Assembly: GCA_963514005.1 (NCBI GenBank)
Contig: OY740805.1
Location: 24,118,001 to 24,182,000, forward strand
Source: Raja brachyura
Taxonomy: Eukaryota
Direction: 5' to 3'
DNA length: 64,000 nt
This document shows, piece by piece, positions 1 through 56,699 of the stretch (the stretch's first letter is position 1; every line of letters starts with the position of its first letter). The notes under the pieces are model-generated. The model ran no database searches, was not told where the DNA came from, and worked only from the letters and a program-made list of their open reading frames with translations. The translations under genes were made by a program, and so were the position numbers.

Positions 1-652
1 GAAAGCAGGGCTTGACCGGGCAATGGCACTTTGTCCCTGGTCACCCGAAAGCCCTGGGACTGGTAGAGCCTGGTGGCGGGCTGCTGGTCTGTGTAGGTGT
101 AGAGGACGCACTCTCTGAAGCCGTTGTCCCGGGAGAACTCCAGCACCCGGCGGGTCAGTCTGCGGCCCAGGCCTAAGCCCCGGCATCGCCGGTCGACAGC
201 GAGACGGAGGAGCTGGCAGCAGCCCGGCTGTCCCTCAGCCGCCTGCGCCGCCACCACCCCCCGCAACCCACCTTCTTCCCCCTCTTCCTCCACCACCCAG
301 AACCCCGCCCCCGGCCTCCGCATGTACGTCCCCTCAATGTCCGCCATGTCCGCCTCCAGCATTTCCCTCAGGTAGTTGATATAGACCATGCGACAGGCCA
401 GGTAGAGCAGGGCTAGCAGTGTGGCGACGGTCAGAGCGGCCAGGCCAGCGACCAGCTGGTTCCGTAGACAACAGCCCCTGTAGCCAGGAGGAGGCAGGGA
501 GCGGCGGGCGACCGCAGGGCCCGGCGGAAGGCCGGCCAAGGCTGGTCCAGCCGACCCTCCGAGAATATCCTGCGGGCCTCCGGCGAGTCGCCGGGCCGGA
601 ACGGGCGCACGGTGAAGCGGGCATCATCTCCGGCCTTGTGGGCGACCGCCAT
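1..652 (-). CDS. NAT8/camello-family GNAT N-acetyltransferase; 3' end runs off the window; one apparent 1-nt frameshift at ~443-445
   Basis: ATG at 652-650: MAVAHKAGDDARFTVRPFRPGDSPEARRIFSEG..., hydrophobic segment, then after a 1-nt shift LAALTVATLLALLYLACR...LEADMADIEGTYMRRPGAGFWVVE...QLLRLAVDRRCRGLGLGRRLTRRVLEFSRDNGFRECVLYTYTDQQPATRLYQSQGF. This contains the NAT8-type DMxDI..Y..FWV motif, GNAT motif A RxxGxG and the LY..xGF motif. Polypyrimidine/AG acceptor upstream puts the exon start at 724. Confidence 0.85.
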
Positions 653-1184
653 GGTCCAGGGAGCCGCTGAGAGACGGAGAAGCTTCGGCCTGAAGAAGGA
701 CATGCAGGGGAGAAGGGTCCGGATCTGCAGAGAGGGAGAAAGGTCAATTGAGTCAGATATTCTCATGCATCTCTTGTTACCTCATTGAGCCAGTGAGATG
801 ATAAACAGGCCCCTCTTCCCAACTTTCCCATGCATACCAGATGTTCCATTTACGCAGGTCTCACCTGCCCATATTTTGCCCATATTACTCCAAACCTTTC
901 CAATCCATGAACCTGTCCAAATGCATTTTATAAATGCATTTTGGTGCACCCAATGTGGCTTTCAATACATCGGCCAAGATAGACTAGGAAACCGCTTCGC
1001 CGAATACTTGCTCCCGGTCTGCCAAGACCCGCTGGATCTCCCAGTCGCTAAACCTTTTTACTCCCCTTCCAATTGCTACTCCCCCTCTCTGCCCCAGGAA
1101 CATCAACTCACATTCAGACTCACGAACAGCACCTTCCCCCTTTTCTGTAACAAATTACTCGTATAAACTTCTGCAGATGCACCA

Positions 1185-3139: not shown

Positions 3140-3540
3140 CCTGACCCGGCTGTCCCTCGTCATCCAGCGCTGCCACCATCTCCCGCAGCCCACCGCCTCC
3201 CACCACCTCCACCGCCCAGAACCCCACCCCCGTCCTCCCCAACTACGTCCACTCAATGTCCGCCTCCAGCTTCTGCTAGAGCTGGGCTAGCAGCCTGGCG
3301 ACGGGGAGAGCGGCACTGCTCAGCGGCCAGCCGGATCCGTAGACCGCGGCCCCGACAGCCAGGAGGAGGTAGGGCCCGGCGGGAGGCCGGCCAAAGCAGG
3401 TTCAACAGACCCTCCGAGAGACCCTGCGGGCCGCCGGCGAGTCGCCCAGCGCGAACGGGCGCACGGCGATGGTCCAGGAAGCCGCTGGAAGATGGGTGCG
3501 CTTCGGCCTGAGGAAGGGGGCGCAGAGGAGAGGGGACTCC
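3140..3540 (-). pseudogene. NAT8-like relic, N-terminal/central part (copy 3), with deletions and no ATG
   Basis: DNA collinear with ~220-720 (cccagaacccc, ctcaatgtccgcctccagc, gggctagcag, gaccctccgaga, cggcgagtcgcc, gaacgggcgcacgg, atggtccagg). Confidence 0.8.
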
Positions 3541-24894: not shown

Positions 24895-25230
24895 ACATTG
24901 AAACATAGAAAATAGGTGCAGGAGTAGGCCATTCAGCCCTTCTAGCCATTCAATATGATCGTGGCTGATCATCCAAAATCAGTATCCCGCTCCTGCTTTC
25001 TCCCCATATACCTTGATTCTGTTAGCCCTCAGAGTTATATTTAACTCTCTCTTGAAAACATCCAGTGAATTGGCCTCCACTGCCTATTGTGCCAGAGAAT
25101 TCCACAGATTCACAACTCTCAGGGTGAAAAAGGTTTTCCTCTTTTTAGCCCTATATCGCCTAACCCTTATTCTTAAACTGTAACCCCCTAGTTGTGGACT
25201 CCCCCAACTTCGGGAACATTTATCCTGCAT
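24895..25230 (-). mobile_element. CR1 3' fragment
   Basis: Reverse complement of the CR1 3'UTR and tail. Confidence 0.85.
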
Positions 25231-25311
25231 GTCCCTTCTAAGTCCCATTGAAATAATAGAGGAAACTCTTAGAGGTTGGCATGGTGGTGCAGCGGAAGAG
25301 TTGTTGCCTTA

Positions 25312-25801
25312 AGGGCCTGTCCCACCAGCATGCAACTCCATGCGATGAGCGCGACCTAACGTGGTCGCTTGAGCCATCCGGCGTCGCGGGGCCGGTCCCA
25401 CTTCGATCGCCGGAGCCGTGCGGAATTGTGCAGAGTTCGTCCCGACATCGCGCGGGGCTCCGAAAAACGGACTATGTTCAAAAATTCCGCGCGGCAACGG
25501 TTTGTCGGCTCGCAGTCGCCTCGACACTTTACACACCGCCCCGACATCTTCCCACCGTGAACCTATCTGTAGGTGTCTCCATGACCCTCTATGTGTGTGG
25601 CTCCGTGGCTCTGTGTGTGTGTGTGCCTCTGTGCCCCTCTCTGTGTGCCCCTCTCTGTCCTGGCGAACTTACCTTAAGACTTCGCTCCAAGTTCGCCTCA
25701 CTTTGCACTGCGTTGCGCCACTCACCCGACCTCCGCGCGGCCCCCGCTTCTAGTTTGATCGCGCTCATCGCATGGAGTCGGATGCTGGTAGGACAGGCCC
25801 T
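25312..25801. mobile_element. PIF/Harbinger-like MITE with TTA TSD, inserted in a V-SINE (~25276-26085)
   Basis: TTA(25309-11)-AGGGCCTGTCCCACCAGCATGC...GATGCTGGTAGGACAGGCCCT-TTA(25802-4); flanks rejoin as gttgttgccTTAcagctccag. Confidence 0.85.
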
Positions 25802-26169
25802 TTACAGCTCCAGATACCTGGGTTCGATCCTGACTATGGATGCTTGTCTGTACGGAATTTGTACATTCTCCCCATGACCTGCGTGGGTTTCCTCCGGGAT
25901 CTCCGGTTTCCTACCACACTCAAAAATAAAAACGTACAGGTTTGAGGGTTAATTGGCCTGGTATAAATGTAAATTGTCCCTTGTGTGTGTGTGTCAGATA
26001 CTGTTAGTGTGAGGGGATCACCGATCGGCATGGACTCGGTGGGCCAAAGCGCCTTTTTCAGTGCTGTATCCCTGAACTAAACTACAACAGGAGGAGGAGG
26101 GTAGGAGAGAAAAAGCAGCAGAAATGGGAAAGAGAGAGATGTGGCTGAAGAAGGGGAGTGTATTGAACA

Positions 26170-26285
26170 GAAACTATTTCACTGGAAATCCCCTGCGTAT
26201 TGTTTACTCAATTTGCATGACACACTCAAAATTCAGCTCTTTCACTTTCAGTTGGCACAGTTTCAGTGTGCAAAGTCCCCACCCT
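26170..26285. promoter_or_regulatory. Candidate immune enhancer: NF-kB, forkhead, octamer, IRF/ISRE and a second NF-kB-like motif
   Basis: GGAAATCCCC 26184-93; TGTTTAC 26201-07; ATTTGCAT 26211-18; TTTCACTTTCAGTT 26240-53; GCAAAGTCCCC 26270-80, in sequence with no repeat I recognise. Confidence 0.55.
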
Positions 26286-27385
26286 GCTGTGTGTGCTCAC
26301 CACAGGTTCCAAACCAGCTATTCCTCTCCATTTTGTGACTTGCAGACTGTACACAGTCACAGTTTTATTACCAACTTGAAAAAATGACTTGTGTATGTAG
26401 CCCAGTCCATTGCATTGACCAGACTCGCCACCATTGATTCCATCTGCACTTCACGCTGCATCGGAAAAGCAGCTAACATAACCAAAGACTTGTCCCACCC
26501 CGGTTATTCCTTCTTCTCCCCGCTCCCGTCCAGCAGAAAGTGCAGAAGCTTGAATGCGCACACCACCAGACTCAGGAATAGCATTTTCCCCTCTGTTATC
26601 AGTTAGGGTCCTTCCATAAGCGAGGGTACTGTCCGATTTATCTTTAAACATAGAAATTAGGTGCAGGAGTAGGCCATTTGGCCCTTCGAGCCTGCACCGC
26701 CATTCAATATGATCATGGCTGATCATCCAACTCAGTATCCCGTACCTGCCTTCTCTCCATACCCTCTGATCCCCTTAGCCACAAGGGCCACATCTAACTC
26801 CCTCTTAAATATAGCCAATATCTCCATTGCGGACTTACTCCATTGCGGACACTGGACTTTGTCTATAGAACTGATGCACCACATTGCTCCATTCTCTTCC
26901 AAAGGGCAGTAAATCCTAACCCGGAGAATCCTGTCCGAAAGCATCATGCGCCAATATTACCCAATCACATAAGCACATCTCGTTTTATGGCAGCACTAGA
27001 ACTGTTGCTTCACAGCTTCGATCCTGACCTCCGGTGCTGTCTGTGTGGAGTCTCTCCGATCTCCCTGTGACTGCATGTATTTCGTCCGGGTGCTTCAGTT
27101 TCCTCCCTCATCACAAAAACATGCAGGTAGTAAAGGTTAATTGGCCTTCTGTAAATTGTCATACAGAGGCCTACAAAACAAAAAATAAAACTGTTACTAA
27201 CCATTGCTACTTCGATAGAAACTCCCATATCTACAACTTTGTCCAGAGATAAGCATGAGTGCACCAGATACTCCTCCAGCAAGTTCCCCCACTCCTTTCA
27301 TTGAACTATTATCTCCATATCTTATGACATAACTTTGACTTTAATAATGACAGGTCAATGTAATTTGTAATTTCTATATCTATTA

Positions 27386-27690
27386 GGGCGGCACGGTGGC
27401 ACAGCGGTAGAGTTGCTGGGTTACAGCGCTTACAGCGCCAGAGCCCCGGGTTCAATCCCGACTACAGGTGCTGTCTGTACAGAGTTTGTACTTTCTCCGA
27501 CATCTTCTGTTTCCTCCCACAGTCCAAAGACGTACAGGTTTGCAGGTAGATTGCCTTGGTATAATTGTAAATTGTGCCTAGTGTGTGTAGGGTAGTGTTA
27601 ATGTGCGGGGATCGCTGGTCGGTGCAGACTTGGTGGGCCGAAGGGCCTGTTTCCATGTTGTATCTCAAAAAAAAAAACGAAACTAAACCA
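27386..27690 (+). mobile_element. V-SINE
   Basis: gggcggcacggtggcacagcggtagagttgc head; tail gggccgaagggcctgtttcc. Confidence 0.85.
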
Positions 27691-28171
27691 TGTTGTTTTG
27701 GTCAGTGTGCATTTGATTGCCTGAATAGCCTGTTTCTAAGCTGTACAAGTCAATGACAAAACTGGAATTCCCCAGCCAATGACACTATCAATGAAATCAT
27801 CACACTGCGTCATGTGGCAAAGTACATTTTCTGGGAATGCAGTAAGTCTAGATTTTTCCTCATCTTTGGCGGCACGGTGACATTTCGGTAGAGCTACTGT
27901 TCTACGGGTGCTGTCTGTATGGAATTTGTACATTCTCCCCGTCACCTGCATGGGTTTTCTCCGATATCTTTGGTTCCCCCCCCACACTCCAAAGAGACAG
28001 ACATACAGGTTTATAGGTTGATTGCCTTATATAAACGTAAAATAAATTGTCCCTAATGTGGGTAGAGTGGTGTTAATGTCGTGGGTCGGTGTGGAATCGA
28101 TGGGCCAATGTATCTCTAAACTAAACTAAACTAAAATGCATTGTAAGCAAATGATCTAGTTATAAACACCA

Positions 28172-35740: not shown

Positions 35741-37604
35741 GCCGCGCTTTAACACGGCACTCTGGTATTTCCCCCATTGCATTAACTGTTGTACGACTGG
35801 ATTGTACTCATGTACAATATGATTTCCATGGAGAGCAGCTACATTTTTCACCGCGTCTCGCAACACGTGACAACAACAAGCTAATACCATCACACGACAG
35901 CATAACAACGAGTCTGAAGAATAAGAGTCGATAGTGTTTTTTGCAATTTGTCCCAGATAGAATAATGCAAATCGTACTTGCAGCAGCACAACAGAATGTG
36001 TAAACATAGTACACTGCAAACAATATAATAACGAGAGAGAAAAGTTCAGTGTGTGTATATATTACACATACAAACACACCCACACATATATATAGATCAT
36101 TTATGTATATATACACACACGCACACATGCGTACACAAAAAAACAACCAACAACAACAAACAAATAATAATAGTGCAAACAATAATAACGTTGCCGATTC
36201 ATTTCCCCCCACAGATGCTGCCTGACCCGCTGAGTTACTCCAGCATGTTGTGTTTCAATCAAGATTCCCGATTCTGCAGTTCCTTTCGCACCCAACGCCA
36301 GCAGGTGCGCCTCTGGTCTGATCCTACACCCAGCTTTGTATCTAAAAACTATTGCTAAAGACTGTGGTCCAAATAAGCTTTTTTTTTTAAACATTCCCCT
36401 GGACGGTTTGAGCAATTGTAAATGGAATGAGGTGTAACTGAGTTTTTAACATCGTAGTTACAATTGGGGTGCGGCTGAAAAAAGTTGCTGCCTCACAGTG
36501 CCAGAGACCCGGGTTCGACCCCGACCTCGGGTGCTGTCTGACCGGCGCTTGTACCTTCTCCGTCACCTCATGGTGATCAAAGATCATAAAGAAGGCCATA
36601 GAATGAAAGATCACACTCTTGCTCTGGTATTTTTGGTGGTGATAGTCGTTTTTCCGGCTGCTCAGGTTTCTTCCTACATTCCAAAGACGTGCAGCATTTT
36701 CTAGGTTAATTGACTTCTGCGTGTTGTCTTTGGTTTGTAGGATAGATTCGTGCATGGGAGATTGCAGGCCGGTGACGAATCGCTAGGCCGAAGGGCCTAT
36801 TTCCAAGCTGTATCTCTAAACGAAACTAATTCTGGATCTGAGCGGAAATCCAACCCCCTCGGAATAATTATTTCAAATTCACATGTTTTATAAAATTACA
36901 GCAATTGATGTTGGTGTCTTGAGCAAAACACAAAATGCTGGATAAACTCAGTGTGGTTGGCAGCATCTGTGGAGAGAATAGCCAAGCGACTTAATAGAGT
37001 TCAGAGTTTTTTTTATTGTCATATGTCCCGATGTGGAACAGTTACATTTTTAGGGTCTGAGGAAGGGTCCCGACCAGAAACGACCCCCATTTCTCTCCAC
37101 AAATTCCAGCATTCGCAGTTCCTTGTACAAATGCTGAGATCCTCCAGTACATTGTTTTGCTCTAGATTTCAGCACCTGCTGTTCATTGTGCCTTATGACT
37201 CCTTCAAGTAACCCTTGCCTCCCAGCTCTCTTCATCCTCCCCCACACCGCCCCCCCCCCTCCACTTTCTCAGTTATCCGACGAGTCTGACTGTCCTCTTT
37301 TACATGTTTATCTCTGTTTGAATCGTTGTTGCCTTCTCCACTTATCTATTCTAGTTTCCTTGAACTTCATCCCCATTTTCTCGTTTTCACGCCTTACACT
37401 TCCTTATCCCTGCATCTCCCTTTCCCCTGACTCAGTCTGAGGAAGGGTCTCGATCCGAAACCTATCATGAGATGCTGCCTATCCCGCTGAGTTAATCCAG
37501 CATTTTGTGACTATCTTCGATTTAAACCAGCACCTACTCGAATACAATGGTGAGCTAGATTTGTCAGTAGATTTTGTAGATAGACTGATCAGTAATGAGT
37601 CTGC

Positions 37605-37959
37605 ATGCTGCCCCGCCCTGTGGTGGTACTGACAGTCGGGGAAAATCCAAAGTATCAGAGTCCATGCGCTCGAACATTGCCTGGGCAGATCTTGCTTCAA
37701 ACACGCCCTTCTCGCTTGCCGGATCGCAAACTCTACAGAGCTCTTTCGCCCGGAGACTGGTGACAAGCCGCTGGTGAATTTTTGCGATTGGCTTTGCTGG
37801 GTCCGATGGGCGGGGCGCTACCGTGCTATTGGTGCCGAGCCGCCGGATTGTTGCGCTCATTTCCAATCCGAGACAGACGGAGAAAGGATATCGGTCTACC
37901 TTCGATATTCCAGCATCTGCAGTTTCTTCTTAAACATAGCGATCTATCGTCTCGTCGAG
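37605..37959 (+). promoter_or_regulatory. B2M promoter: CpG-rich, NF-kB-like site, putative S-X1X2-Y module, GC boxes, further CCAAT boxes
   Basis: GGGGAAAATCC 37638-48; CCCGGAGACTGGTGACA 37749-65; GCGATTGGCT 37784-93; GGGCGGGG ~37808-15; ATTGG ~37828; CCAAT 37863-67. Confidence 0.7.
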
Positions 37960-38005
37960 ATGCGTACATTGATCCTGCTCTCGTTGGCGACGCTGTGTGT
38001 GGCGA
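37960..38005 (+). CDS. B2M: Beta-2-microglobulin exon 1 (signal peptide)
   Basis: MRTLILLSLATLCVA + 1 nt, then GTGAGT donor; phase 1 joins exon 2 in frame. Confidence 0.9.
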
Positions 38006-38089
38006 GTGAGTATACTTTGTTGCTTTGGCCAAGTGCATTGATCCAGCGGGGTCCATTCGGCTCCTTGCCCCGCTGAAAGTGATAGGGCT

Positions 38090-39880
38090 TATTTTCCAGG
38101 ATCCCCTCCCCGCTCACCCCAATGCTCCAGGTCCCATCTCTCTCCTTGAAACCTATTTACCGCCAGTCTGCTCTCTCGAAACGATCATTTGCCCCATCTC
38201 TCTCTAAAAGTCCTGCCACCCGTCCTAATACCTCGTGCCGGTCGAAAATAAATCCTCGCACTAACTCTTGTGTCCCATATCCTCCCCTCAAAACCCTTGA
38301 ATCCCATATCATCCGCCCAAAAAACCCGAGAGCTCTATATCTCCCCCCCCCCTCCGAAAATGTTCGAAGTCCATATCCCCCCCCCCCCAGTAACCGTCAA
38401 CTATAAGACATCAAAAGACCCCTCGCTAATACCCCATTCCTTCTCTCAAAAGAACCTTCCCTAATGCCCGAAGATAGACACAAAATGCTGGAGTAACTCG
38501 GCGGGACAGGCAGCATCTCTGGAGAGAAGGAATGGGTGACGTTTCCGGTCGAGATCCTTCTTCATTCGACGCCAGACCTCGCACTCGCTTACCTAGTGCC
38601 CCATTCCCTCAAAACGAATTACCCCTTACCCTCGTTTGGAGTGCTCTCACAATCACCCCATATCCTCTCGCAAAAAGAGTCCCCCCCCCCTTGTGCCCCA
38701 TATCCTCCCTCAGAAAGAGCCTTCGCTAATACCCCACTCCCTTTCCCAAAAGAGGCCTCCTTGTTAACCCTAATTCCCTTTATCCCCTCTCAAAAAGAGC
38801 CATCTCCAATGCCCCATGCTCTCTCCACATTAACCCAGATACCGCATACCTTTGACTCAAAAACCCTCAAAAGTTCCATATCCTCTATCTCAAAAAGAAC
38901 CCTCCCCATTTACCCGAATAGCTTGTCGCACAATAATAGCGATCTTCATTGACCCCTACTCTTTCTATTGGAATGAGACCGCTCCCCAGCCCTTTTAACC
39001 CCGATGTCCCGTGTGTGTGCTCTCTTTTGCTTGGGAAGAAGTCCCCTAAAATGTCCCATGTACTACGTGAAGTCGAGTCCACTCTCAGAATGAGCCCTTC
39101 CTCCGGCCTCTTGCTCCCATGTCTCTTCTCCCCTCCCCCATTTTGAAACATTGCTGAAAAACTTTTCCCATTACCCTGAATTCTCTCCTCAAAGAGCTGC
39201 CCATAAACCCCAAAACTGTGTTCCCCCTCCCTCATTCTCTCTCTCTCTCTTCAATGGACCCCCACTCCTCACGGGATTGGATAGCATTCCCGAGGCTCGA
39301 GGGATATGTGGAGAAAATGTGAACGGGGACTGAATTTGGATGATCGACTTTGACCGTGTTGTGAAAGAACATGTTCAAAGGGCTGTATGGCCTCTTGCTC
39401 CTATTTATTGTGTTCATTTAATTACCTCAGTGATCCTCTGCCCCCCTCTTTATCTGCAAGTACCTCCTCCCCATTACTGTAATGTGCTATGTCCTATCTT
39501 CGGAAAGAACCCTTCCCCCAACCCCTACTACACTGATGCCTGATGTGCACGTGATATTCACTCTCAGAAAGAACCCTCCCACTCTCTGTAATACCTCTCC
39601 GTCCCTTCTCTCTGCAAGAGGCGCCCGTTAAAACTCCGAGTCTCCTCTTTTCCAAAGAACCACTCTCCTTTTAGTCCCTCTCCTCTCTATAAGTACTCCC
39701 CATTCCCCCTACGCCTCCTTTCCCTTGGAACAAGACCCCAACCCAACCCTGTTGTCCACAATGCCCCTGCGCCCTCCCGCCCTCTCTTTTTGCAAAGAGG
39801 GTCCCTCCACTTCCCTCTCTCTGAAAGAGCAACACCCCATTAGTTCCACCTCCGTTCTTTAAAAGAAAGAGCCTTCAATT
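38090..39880 (+). repeat. C-rich degenerate minisatellite in B2M intron 1
   Basis: Recurring CCCCATATCCTC(T/C)CTCAAAAAGAG..CTCGCTAATA-like ~35-nt units; interrupted by a pLTR fragment at ~38470-38566. Confidence 0.6.
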
Positions 39881-41004
39881 AATGCACCTTGCACACGCTT
39901 CTCTCCATGTCGGCCCCCGTGAGGAGGATGCATTTGTGAAATGTAGCTGAGTTGGATTTTTAGATCTGCGTTTTGGAACCGACAGAGTGAACCGATTGTT
40001 TTGGATCCAAAACACTAAAAGTTTTGGAATCACTCAGGGGGTCAGGCGGCATTTGTGGAGGGAACGATTGGGCGCCATTTTGTGTCGAGTTTCTTCAGTC
40101 TGAATAATCCTTGTGTCTCTGCTTTAGATTCACCACAGGAAACTAGAAAGGGTTAATTAACAACCATGTCGTTAACAATCTCAGAGGAGATCACGGTGGC
40201 ACAGCGGTAGAGTTGATCCCTAATAGCGAATGTAGCACCAGAAACCCGGGTTCGACCACAACTACTGATGCTGTCTGACCTGTGTGGGTTTTCTCAGAGA
40301 TCTTTGGTTTCCTCCCACACTCCAAAGACATACAGGCTTGTCGCTTAATTGGATTTGCAAGAGAAAAAATGTTCCTGGGACGTGTAAGATAAACGTTAAT
40401 GTGCGGGGGTGGCTGGTCGGCGCGGAAGGGCCTGCTTGTGCATTATATTTCTTAACTAAACTAAATCACATGATAGAGCCCTGTTAGATTTTAGTGTCGT
40501 TCAAACTGAAACCAGGGTTTTCAATGGAAATAAACTAAGGAGGAAATTTGTTGGGGTTAATTGGAAAAATCTATTAAAGGATATAAACATGGATTAACAT
40601 TTATTGCTTTAAACATTTTAAAGCAATAAAATATCACATGCAACACATTATATTCCTTTAAGAAGCAAGGACTTAATAGGAAAAGTAATCCAAACAAAGA
40701 CTACAGGAGCAATAGTTTTACATTTAAAAGCTGACAAAAAGTTGTCAGAAAAAACACCATTAAGGTTGAGGATTGAAAATTCAACTGAAGAGAATACAAA
40801 AATTAATGAAGAAAGATGATTGAGGTTTCAAGTGTTAGGGTGTTTGTCCACTTGTGGAGCTTTATGAGTTGCTGTATAATCAGATTTTATCACCCCTCAC
40901 TGGGAAAGATGCTGGCGAGCTACCATGGTGTTGGGCGTACTTTGGGGTGTTGTACCATGAGAAGTTTGAGCTGGTTGGTCAGGAGAGTGGAGGTACAAGA
41001 GAGT

Positions 41005-41300
41005 GGAGAGGCACAGTGGCACAGCGGTAGAGTTGCTGTCCTACAATGCCAGAGATCCGGGTTCGATCCTGACTGTGGATGCTGCCTGCACAGTTGTTTT
41101 ACATTCACCCTAAAACCGTGTGCATTATATCCGGGAGCTCCGGTTCCCTCCCACACTCCAAAGACGCATAGGTTTATTGGCTTATGTAAATTGTCCCTAG
41201 TGTGCCGGATAGAACTAGTGTCCAGGTGATTGCTGGTCAGCATGGACTCAGTGAACCGAAGGGCCTGTTTCCATGCTGTAACTCTACACAAAATTAAACT
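41005..41300 (+). mobile_element. V-SINE in B2M intron 1 (another copy at ~40190-40465)
   Basis: tRNA head, V-domain, aaact tail. Confidence 0.8.
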
Positions 41301-41690
41301 AAGATGAAGTGTCTCAACCAGAAGTGTTGACTGTTCATTTCCCTTCCACTAATCCCCTCTACCTGCGCATGATCCATATCCCTCCATTCCCTGCATATCA
41401 ATGTGCCTATCTGAAAGTCTCTTAAACATTACTACTGTACTTGCCTCCACCACCAGCTCTGGCAGAGTGTTACCCATCACTCTCTATGTAAAAAAAAACT
41501 TGCCTCGCACATGTTCTTTATAATTTGCCCCTCTCACCTTTAAAACTTTGCCCTCTAGTCTTTGACTTTTCCACACTGGGGAAGAGCAGTGGTGAGTACG
41601 CTTTTGACAGGATTCTCAATCAGTGCTGGAGACCGTTGTTTGTGCCAGATTCTAATACGTCCTCATTGTGGTTCTTCTGTACATCCGCAG

Positions 41691-41969
41691 TTCCGAGTCC
41701 GCCACAGGTGGTCGTGTACACCTACAAACCCTTGGAGGAAGGTCAGGACAACATTCTCCTCTGCCATGCTAAGGAATTCAACCCACCCAACATCGAGCTG
41801 AAACTGTATGAGGGTAACAAACCTTTCAATGAAGCAAACCAAACTGATCTCAGCTTTGAGTCAAACTGGAAATTCAAATTGACCAAGTTCATCAAATTAA
41901 TTCCCAAGAAAGATGCGGAGTATTCCTGCCATGTGGTGCACATGGGTAGGACCAGTATTTACAAACTGG
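41691..41969 (+). CDS. B2M: Beta-2-microglobulin exon 2 (Ig C1-set domain)
   Basis: ccgcag acceptor; IPSPPQVVVYTYKP..NILLCHAKEFNPPNIELKL..QTDLSFESNWKFKLTK..YSCHVVH..YKL (B2M hallmarks P.VVVY, LLC..F.PP.I, DLSF..W.F, YSC.V.H); 279 nt; GTGAGT donor. Confidence 0.97.
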
Positions 41970-43051
41970 GTGAGTAAAGCATCCATTGGTCACAAATCTT
42001 ATACAGTAAAGCTTTAATCCTGCATACTTGGCACTTTGGTGGCGCTGGACAAGGAGATATTAGAAGTTATTCCCGACTAAATCACCAAAAAAATGTAATT
42101 CACTCTTTGATTTGTATGTTACATGGTATGATATACTTTCCAGTGAAGTCAGTAAGTTCAATGACATAGATTTGAGGTGAGGTCCGGGTATCAAGAACAC
42201 TGCATGAGAATGCATCTAATTTCACTTGACAGTTGCTGAACCATTCAATAGCAGATTATTGGTGCTTTGCTGCACCTGAACACACACAGCTTCATGCACT
42301 CTTTACCATATTGTAGTCCAGGCCCTTCAGCCCTAAACACAATTTCCTCAGCAACTGAATCATCCTACCACAACCCGAGAGCAGTGCTAAACTACTATAT
42401 ACCTCATTCATGAGTCACGGATTATCTTTGACCGGTCTTTGCTGTGTTTACCTTGCACTAAATGTTATTCCCTTATCATGCTCGATTGTAATCGTGTTTT
42501 GTCTTAATGCTTACTGGTTAGCACGCAACAAAAGCTTTTCACTGTACCTCGGTACACATGACAATAAACTAAACTGAAACTCTCCAACTGTACACCTAAT
42601 ATCAATGCTTAGTTAACTTCTACCTTTGAACATTACCAAGCATCCATTATTATATAAATCACCTGAATGTCTGGGTGAGATTCCTGCCTGATCCTCATTT
42701 CCAGGTATCAATTATCAGTGGATGAATTTCCAAACACTTGAAAAAGCTAAATGTGGGTCTGTCTTTTGGCATAACATCATACTCGCACCATTTTCAGTCC
42801 TGCACTAAACATGACTCTATGGTTCTAAACCGAGATTAGGATGGAGGTTCAGATAAAGAAAACAAAATAAGGAAGCTAATGAAGGCAAGTTTGGTTTGGA
42901 CAAAGGTAATGACAGACACAAAAACCTGGATTAACTCAGAGGGTCAGGTAGCATCTCCGGAGAAGAAGGAACAGGAGATATTACGGGTTGAGACCCTTCT
43001 TCAGACTTGGTCACAGACTAATGATGTTTTTGTTCTCTCTTCCACTTACAG

Positions 43052-43062
43052 AATCCTTCTAG
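43052..43062 (+). CDS. B2M: Beta-2-microglobulin exon 3 coding part (ESF-stop); exon continues to donor at 43077
   Basis: Polypyrimidine tract + ttacag acceptor; G|AA TCC TTC TAG; CAG|GTAAGC donor. A short exon 3 matches the canonical B2M layout. Confidence 0.85.
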
Positions 43063-43166
43063 GCTGCTGCACCACAGGTAAGCAAACTGACATGTCATAT
43101 GGCTACTGATTAGAATATTCTAACCTCACATTCGGACTTCTCACTCTTATTTCTTTGTTTTTGCAG

Positions 43167-44095
43167 CCTTGAACATCGACCTGATTACTGAATGATTAAC
43201 CGCGAAGTTGATCGTCTTTGAATTTAATTTTTAATTGATTTACAGTATCAGGATAAAGGCATAACTACCTGCAAGATTGGCTTCAGAACCGTAGATCCTT
43301 GTAATCGAAGCTACTGGCCGCTTGCTCTTTCCTTCGTAGTGTGAACAATAAAGTAGCTTTTAACCGCTCGCTTATTAGAAATGTAGTTTCCCCTTCCGAC
43401 TGCTGTGGCGAATTGGCCTGCAAGAAGGAACCAGTCATTTTCCTCTCTCCAGCATCCGATCCCACCCCACTACAACCCCTCCCTCCCACTTCACAACCCT
43501 GCCTAGCAATTTGGATAGCCTTGCTGTTAGAAGCCCAGATGCGATGGTTAATTTTGAGGCAGCAGCTCTACCAGCATATTCTCATTATTTCTGTACCTGT
43601 AATAATCTCAGTCTTCTTAAATAAAAAGTGTTAAAGAGCTGTTAAATGATCACAGCAATCAACCTCCACCAGTGAACCTCACAAGTACATCCCCAGAAGG
43701 ACATTGAGCTGAGAACTGTACGTCCAAAGTCACCTTTTCCTCCCATGGTCCATTCACATGGTGCATCTGAAAATACAGTTATCAGTTACTCTAACACTTT
43801 ATGCCTTTTGTCAACTGGTATCTAAAATTCCTTGTTTCTATCTTATTTTGTAATGCTTCTGACCAGTCTTCCTGCTGCACCCGTTCCCACAGTTATATTC
43901 CTCCCTGGCTATTTGCATGGTTAAGTTCATATTCAGCTGTTGATTTAAATAATACTTTTTAACAGGCACAAACATATGCCTTCATTTTTTCTGATTTTTG
44001 AAATAGAATTCTTGGATTTTAGGGGGATTCTTTTTTATCAATAATTGACTTTGATTACATGCCTAATAAAGGGTGATTAATCCATTACGCTTGCG
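43167..44095 (+). other. B2M: B2M exon 4 (3'UTR) with candidate polyA signals
   Basis: tttctttgtttttgcag acceptor ending 43166; AATAAA at 43347, 43620 and 44065, the last followed by a GU-rich tract. Confidence 0.7.
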
Positions 44096-56438: not shown

Positions 56439-56699
56439 CTGTGCAACCACACTTAACACTCTACATAAACCGCTTGCATCTAACCCTGGGCATGCCATTG
56501 TATTCTATTATATCTCTATGCTCAAAACTAATTTCCAATGGGGGGACATCTGTTTACACCTGAGATAGCTCTGGCTGGATGATAAAGAGCATTGAACATG
56601 GAAAAACTTGCATAGCTTACAATCCAAAGGTATGAACATTAATTTTTCTAATTTTAGGCAACCTCTATCATCCCCCCCCTCTTCCCCTTCAAAGTCCAA

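Follow-up and report, generated by a model that had tools for sequence, protein, structure and literature searches.

The window, i.e., the whole stretch of 64,000 nucleotides of Raja brachyura DNA analysed here, contains the B2M gene on the forward strand (37960–44070, ATG at 37960). Its coding exons are located at 37960–38005, 41691–41969 and 43052–43077 (the stop lies inside the third of these), and its last exon begins at 43167; this four-exon structure is based on splice sites read by eye. The assignment to B2M, proposed in an earlier note on this DNA, is borne out by the Pfam C1-set match in exon 2 (2e-15) and by the best PDB matches, all of which are B2M (3e-28). According to parts of PMC10751288, elasmobranch B2M is linked to the MHC, and its neighbours vary except for BRD2. 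The main text of that study does not name NAT8-like genes among these neighbours.

At the other end of the window, a GNAT acetyltransferase coding exon (1–724, reverse strand; PF00583, 1.5e-16) was found, which we take to be NAT8-like. NAT8 is expressed in kidney and liver. The reading frame of this exon shifts near 430–445, reflecting either a pseudogene or an assembly error, and a 5′ exon was not located in the window. Two decayed GNAT look-alikes lie near 1150–1750 and 3250–3540, within the first 3.8 kb. Between the GNAT exon and B2M, no other host genes were recognised, only transposon fragments; this search covered 154 stop-free non-repeat stretches by eye and 12 frames by Pfam, which small or non-coding exons may escape.

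In mammals, the B2M promoter carries proximal kB and ISRE sites. The CpG-rich proximal promoter of the skate gene (37639–37832, forward strand) contains, according to the motif scan, a kB-like site with one mismatch (37639–37648), which was overlooked in the earlier note, an X-like word (37749–37762, three mismatches to the consensus) and ATTGG boxes at 37787 and 37828. The X-like word is positioned 21 bp ahead of the Y-box-like site, which is a class II-like X-to-Y spacing. It is possible that this promoter holds an SXY module, here predicted in a cartilaginous fish; B2M promoters contain SXY, as stated in parts of PMC4374748, PMC7573153 and PMC4243378. No exact ISRE was found over 37400–38100, in agreement with the earlier statement that the proximal promoter lacks a clear one. 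Two ISRE words with one mismatch each do occur, one inside a repeat at 37415 and the other in intron 1 at 38075.

Upstream of B2M, a single-copy island (26089–26441, no strand assigned) was delimited by self-BLAST of the window and by contigs of three relatives. No further copy of it occurs in the 64-kb window, of which ~48% is self-repeated. On the left it is flanked by an element at 25803–26088 (forward strand; window self-matches, relatives' contigs), presumably a SINE in view of its tail and many copies in the window. On the right stands a forward-strand fragment at 26395–26640 (window self-matches, contig of relative E), which we take to be the 3′ part of a LINE reverse transcriptase; the final ~45 bases of the island are part of it. 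Further to the left, an element (25311–25802) whose 50-bp terminal inverted repeats are 90% complementary is inserted in a SINE, with an apparent TTA duplication; it presumably belongs to the PIF/Harbinger-type MITEs, which it resembles. A 103-codon stop-free frame across the island gave no Pfam matches, and Rfam gave none over 25200–27950 at E up to 1. Self-BLAST, Pfam, Rfam and the relatives' contigs together describe the island as single-copy and non-coding, as expected of an inducible distal enhancer.

Words of the island are present in 20 sequencing runs from 10 studies under 8 organism labels, with shares ranging from 1.00 to 0.07. No library type is given for any of these runs, and none is listed as RNA, which tells neither for nor against transcription. 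Four of the 20 runs (relatives D, E, F and G) were compared with 26060–27900 at 80% likeness. In relatives E, F and G the element is spanned by a single contig each, at depths of 18, 23 and 38, compared with 1e4–1e7 for the flanking repeats; low-depth relative D gave one short piece inside the island, with flanking repeats at 1e4–1e6. The 'apparently unique', not high-copy, island of the earlier note is upheld by the self-BLAST and by the single contig per relative, the copy number being that of the relatives' contigs at 80% likeness and not of the source genome. Cover is missing over 26122–26245 in D and over 27238–27299 in E. Divergence from the window amounts to 8–10% in E (31/377), F (26/249) and G (24/294), and to 2/151 in D. 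Two contigs, those of E and G, cross the left junction between the SINE tail and the island, and the E contig also extends into the LINE fragment on the right, so that the order of these parts is shared.

Within the island, the stretch 26170–26285 contains five motif words described in the earlier note, all of which were found where they had been placed, between the SINE and the LINE fragment. These are an exact NF-kB consensus site (26184–26193, reverse strand), an exact forkhead (FOXA-type) word TGTTTAC (26201–26207, forward), an exact octamer (26211–26218, forward), an exact IRF/ISRE site on the reverse strand (26240–26253, GAAANNGAAA with 5′ AA) and a kB-like site with one mismatch (26270–26280, reverse). 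The exact AANNGAAANNGAAA at the IRF/ISRE site is the sole one in 64 kb. A RUNX core (26299–26304, reverse strand), overlooked in the earlier note, was added by the motif scan. Of the consensus words used in the scan, those for ISRE and HNF4 come from PMC6954429 and PMC3384313, respectively; the others are those that we assume for their factors. The exact kB, exact ISRE and one-mismatch kB sites all lie within 97 bp, and the IRF site sits between the two kB-type sites. The nearest base of the cluster, 26285, is 11.7 kb upstream of the B2M ATG, and B2M is the nearest host-gene coding sequence found.

The last of these sites allows two readings. The earlier note called it an immunoglobulin kappa-type kB site; it is indeed kB-like with one mismatch, but it is equally good as an HNF4-specific word on the forward strand (26271–26279, 8/9 match). 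The one mismatch to HNF4 falls at the last position, which may vary in the HNF4-specific word (PMC3384313, in part), and the letter spoiling the kB match is among those that HNF4 requires; it is unchanged among the listed variants.

The content and layout of the cluster, together with the pattern of change in relatives discussed below, lead us to regard it, tentatively and with slightly less than even confidence, as a candidate IRF- and NF-kB-inducible, single-copy distal enhancer of B2M. On a more general level, the stretch 11.7 kb upstream of B2M is a plausible, unproven inflammation-inducible enhancer of an ordinary kind. The tie of the element to B2M is distance alone, and the GNAT gene is a possible second target.

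The pattern of change in relatives was assessed from 40 of the 135 variant rows. The counts use the 24 rows within 26105–26353, the span common to E, F and G; the others, of which 4 lie left of this span, 6 right of it and 6 in a control stretch, do not enter the counts. Substitutions without a placement number 6/31 in E, 6/26 in F and 9/24 in G, and, judging from depth, we infer that overlapping pieces hide rows in the SINE tail, at ~26141–26165, at ~26202–26222 (E and G) and at ~26231–26248 (F). At each of the two kB-type sites, all three relatives have single cover. Among the listed variants, there is no change in the kB site 26184–26193 in these three relatives or in the dual-reading site in D, E, F and G, and the IRF site is likewise unchanged, firmly in E and G and with uncertainty at ~26240–26248 in F. 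No listed indel alters the spacing from the IRF site to the second kB-type site; a 3-base deletion in G falls between the kB and IRF sites.

Taken together, the kB, IRF and second kB-type sites, a three-site subset chosen after the data had been seen, have no listed changes at 35 positions versus 18/81 elsewhere in 26170–26285 (one-sided p 0.0008), 23/149 at the other positions to 26353 (p 0.006) and 24/214 over the whole span 26105–26353 (p 0.02). Counting the five named motifs together gives 3/50 versus 15/66 at other positions of 26170–26285 (p 0.012), and significance is lost over the wider limits (p 0.08 and 0.25). Circular shifts of the motif positions did as well in 1/116 and 2/184 cases, the true register included. 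Because 9 of the 24 variable sites are shared, E, F and G are not independent. The pattern of 0/35 versus 18/81 suggests a footprint of constraint, not proof of it.

The octamer, which the earlier note counted as part of the element, drops out: it is broken by 26213 T>C in all three relatives covering it (E, F and G), and in F also by 26212 T>C. The forkhead word carries 26206 A>G in the same three relatives and still fits TGTTTRC; a second short piece overlaps it in E and G, where further changes are possible. The RUNX core carries 26302 A>G in F and still fits TGYGGT. Both degenerate consensus words are those we assume for these factors, and the rough chances that the listed changes keep the consensus are 0.29 for FOX and 0.11 for RUNX. 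The immunoglobulin kappa-type octamer/kB enhancer of B cells serves as a comparison system here. In the source genome octamer and kB words stand together in the same way; unlike in that system, the three relatives covering the octamer lack it, and the window yielded no immunoglobulin gene.

Adjoining the cluster, and beyond the limits given in the earlier note, a 41-base block (26303–26343) is free of listed changes in all three relatives and has been assigned no known motif; its chance is 0.01–0.09 per given block at plausible rates, the search not being allowed for. The island as a whole does not differ significantly from the neighbouring control stretch (26/249 versus 18/280 in F, 24/294 versus 20/387 in G), which includes SINE sequence and may itself be constrained. 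This control (27088–27411) is well conserved in F and G, and the contigs contain insertions relative to the window of 4 bases (F and G) and 24 bases (G). Of the conservation in relatives that the earlier note had named as a check, there is a suggestion at the kB, IRF and second kB-type sites, which are free of listed changes, but not at the octamer, and the island is conserved no better than the control.

The strength of the cluster was compared with order-3 Markov simulations, from which both the motif weights and the null windows were derived, using a broad panel of 30 words and an immune panel of 15 words. Under both panels the cluster is the best 110-bp window of the real 64-kb sequence. 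Its score was reached in 38/150 simulated windows with the broad panel and in 2/150 with the immune panel; in a second simulation, the immune panel reached it in 7/400 windows with the octamer and in 234/400 without it, and the broad panel without the octamer in 145/400. The octamer supplies most of the excess over chance, and in view of these counts the cluster is unusual solely for immune words with the octamer counted. The 'dense cluster' of the earlier note is, therefore, the top one in the window, but its excess over chance is only moderate. Addition of HNF4 to the broad panel gave 6/400, a figure that is not counted since the HNF4 word was chosen after the site had been seen.

Two other places in the window attracted attention. 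A second short island (27689–27870), 1.5 kb nearer to B2M, contains a kB consensus (27764–27773), a GAS word (27829–27837) and, near 27806, a half site resembling CRE/AP-1; its cover in relatives is partial and in part multi-copy. The third-ranked cluster (56551–56660) is situated in non-repeat DNA downstream of B2M and contains FOX, NFAT and MEF2 words, with an exact HNF4 word close by at 56690.

These counts bear directly on the possibility that the cluster has no regulatory role and is a chance gathering of short words in single-copy DNA of an ordinary, slowly evolving kind, which we consider a serious prospect, of roughly one-third weight. Apart from the frequency with which the broad-panel score is reached, a kB and an IRF word alone fall within 110 bp in 71/400 simulated windows, the octamer is not common to the relatives, and at the rate of change of the control (~6–8%) the 0/35 result itself has a chance of 0.05–0.13. 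The base rate of ISRE occupancy is also low: in activated mouse dendritic cells, IRF3 occupies less than 1% of the canonical ISRE words (PMC6954429). On the other hand, the listed changes gather in the spacers and spare all three Rel/IRF-type sites, those in the FOX and RUNX words stay within consensus, and the best immune cluster of the window adjoins an interferon-pathway gene without an exact ISRE in its promoter.

Since the dual-reading site is equally an HNF4 word, an epithelial FOXA/HNF4 reading rivals the lymphoid one. In this case the stretch would be an epithelial enhancer primed by FOXA and HNF4, with GNAT or a gene outside the window as the main target and with IRF and NF-kB as inflammatory inputs. 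The retained FOXA word and the HNF4 reading suggest that epithelial priming may take place. As in FOXA–HNF4 epithelial enhancers (PMC3384313, in part), a FOXA word, here kept through its degenerate change, and an HNF4 word matching at 8/9, with its mismatch at the variable position and the kB-spoiling letter preserved, occur within one nucleosome length. The GNAT exon, ~25 kb from the island on the side opposite to B2M, turns its 5′ end towards it. Yet the 8-letter HNF4 word is common, with 10 occurrences in the 64-kb window, and the FOX–HNF4 centre-to-centre spacing (~69 bp) falls outside the 15–60 bp at which cooperative FOXA1–HNF4A sites are enriched (bioRxiv 10.64898/2026.05.27.728252, in part), although this preference is a soft one. 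Moreover, unlike those enhancers, the cluster also has IRF and kB sites, which suit B2M better, and the GNAT exon is twice as distant as B2M and its frame is shifted. We consider this explanation unlikely.

That the island is instead a transposable-element relic (e.g., an LTR), or that it belongs to a non-coding transcript as its promoter or an exon, is very improbable: by eye, the purine run 26090–26160 followed by TG at 26159 is reminiscent of a polypurine tract and LTR start, and the 41-base block is without a listed change, but E, F and G each yielded one contig at a likeness of 80%, below which an old relic would escape the comparison, a single short piece of the island stands against the abundant flanking repeats in D, terminal repeats were looked for in the island and not found, Rfam matches are lacking, CpG is depleted (observed/expected 0.1), and a change present in all four relatives (26296 C>T) removes the +5 letter of a splice-donor-like word on the reverse strand near 26300. 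The LTR reading of the purine run, a high-copy repeat and a splice donor near 26300 were rejected on these grounds.

Returning to the inducible distal enhancer of B2M, its activity could be realised as follows. A constitutive factor (FOXA, RUNX, and either HNF4 or a second Rel dimer at 26270–26280) would open the chromatin. Interferon, TNF or Toll-like-receptor signals would then trigger the binding of IRF1/2-type factors to 26240–26253 and of Rel dimers to 26184–26193, leading to increased B2M transcription. The module would loop over 11.7 kb to the SXY-like B2M promoter at 37.7–37.8 kb and supply it with an ISRE input. The octamer would be a lineage-restricted extra outside the shared core.

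The combination of kB and ISRE is the inducible module of class I genes (PMC3021195, in part). Like HLA class I enhancer A (kB1, kB2)/ISRE, described in the same source, the cluster has two kB-type sites and an ISRE within ~100 bp, and like the HLA module it adjoins a gene of the class I pathway with an X/Y-like layout in its promoter. The likeness is one of motif content. The HLA module is placed within ~200 bp of the ATG beside SXY, whereas the present cluster is 11.7 kb off; here the two kB-type sites enclose the IRF site, and one of the two reads equally as HNF4. The closeness of kB and ISRE is thus shared and the proximal position beside SXY is not, and because of this position the cluster is not filed as an enhancer A/ISRE module; at best it may act like one.

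The mammalian B2M promoter belongs to the same gene and has proximal SXY (PMC4374748, PMC7573153) and kB words to which the SXY-like and kB-like words of the skate promoter correspond, but in the skate there is no exact proximal ISRE, and the window's single long IRF word is the one in the distal cluster. Another parallel is HLA-G (PMC3021195, in part), in which the proximal ISRE is missing and an upstream ISRE supplies the interferon response; that ISRE lies at 744 bp and its function has been shown, whereas the present one lies at 11.7 kb and is predicted from sequence. Our literature search, outside of which most subscription papers fall, found no paper on a B2M enhancer in sharks or rays and nothing directly relevant on a B2M promoter of these fish, a distal mammalian B2M enhancer, a B2M promoter ISRE or an HNF4A–B2M link.

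A bolder version of the distal enhancer can be formulated, in which the interferon-response site moved from the promoter to an upstream module at 11.7 kb that joins IRF/NF-kB to FOXA/HNF4 priming; we regard it as rather doubtful. If it were true, B2M induction would be wired for gut or gill epithelium through a distal enhancer and the promoter would retain the SXY module; a single lineage would have gained an octamer that could extend the activity to B cells.

As the kind of element is well known, the gain would be evolutionary detail and not a new mechanism. The fragment is short and suited to reporter assays as it stands. No living group with MHC-based immunity is older than the cartilaginous fish, whose B2M is still MHC-linked (PMC10751288, in part). 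Validation of the element would reveal how class I presentation came under interferon and NF-kB control at a time when B2M still lay in the MHC, and whether the kB/ISRE module could once be separated from the SXY module.
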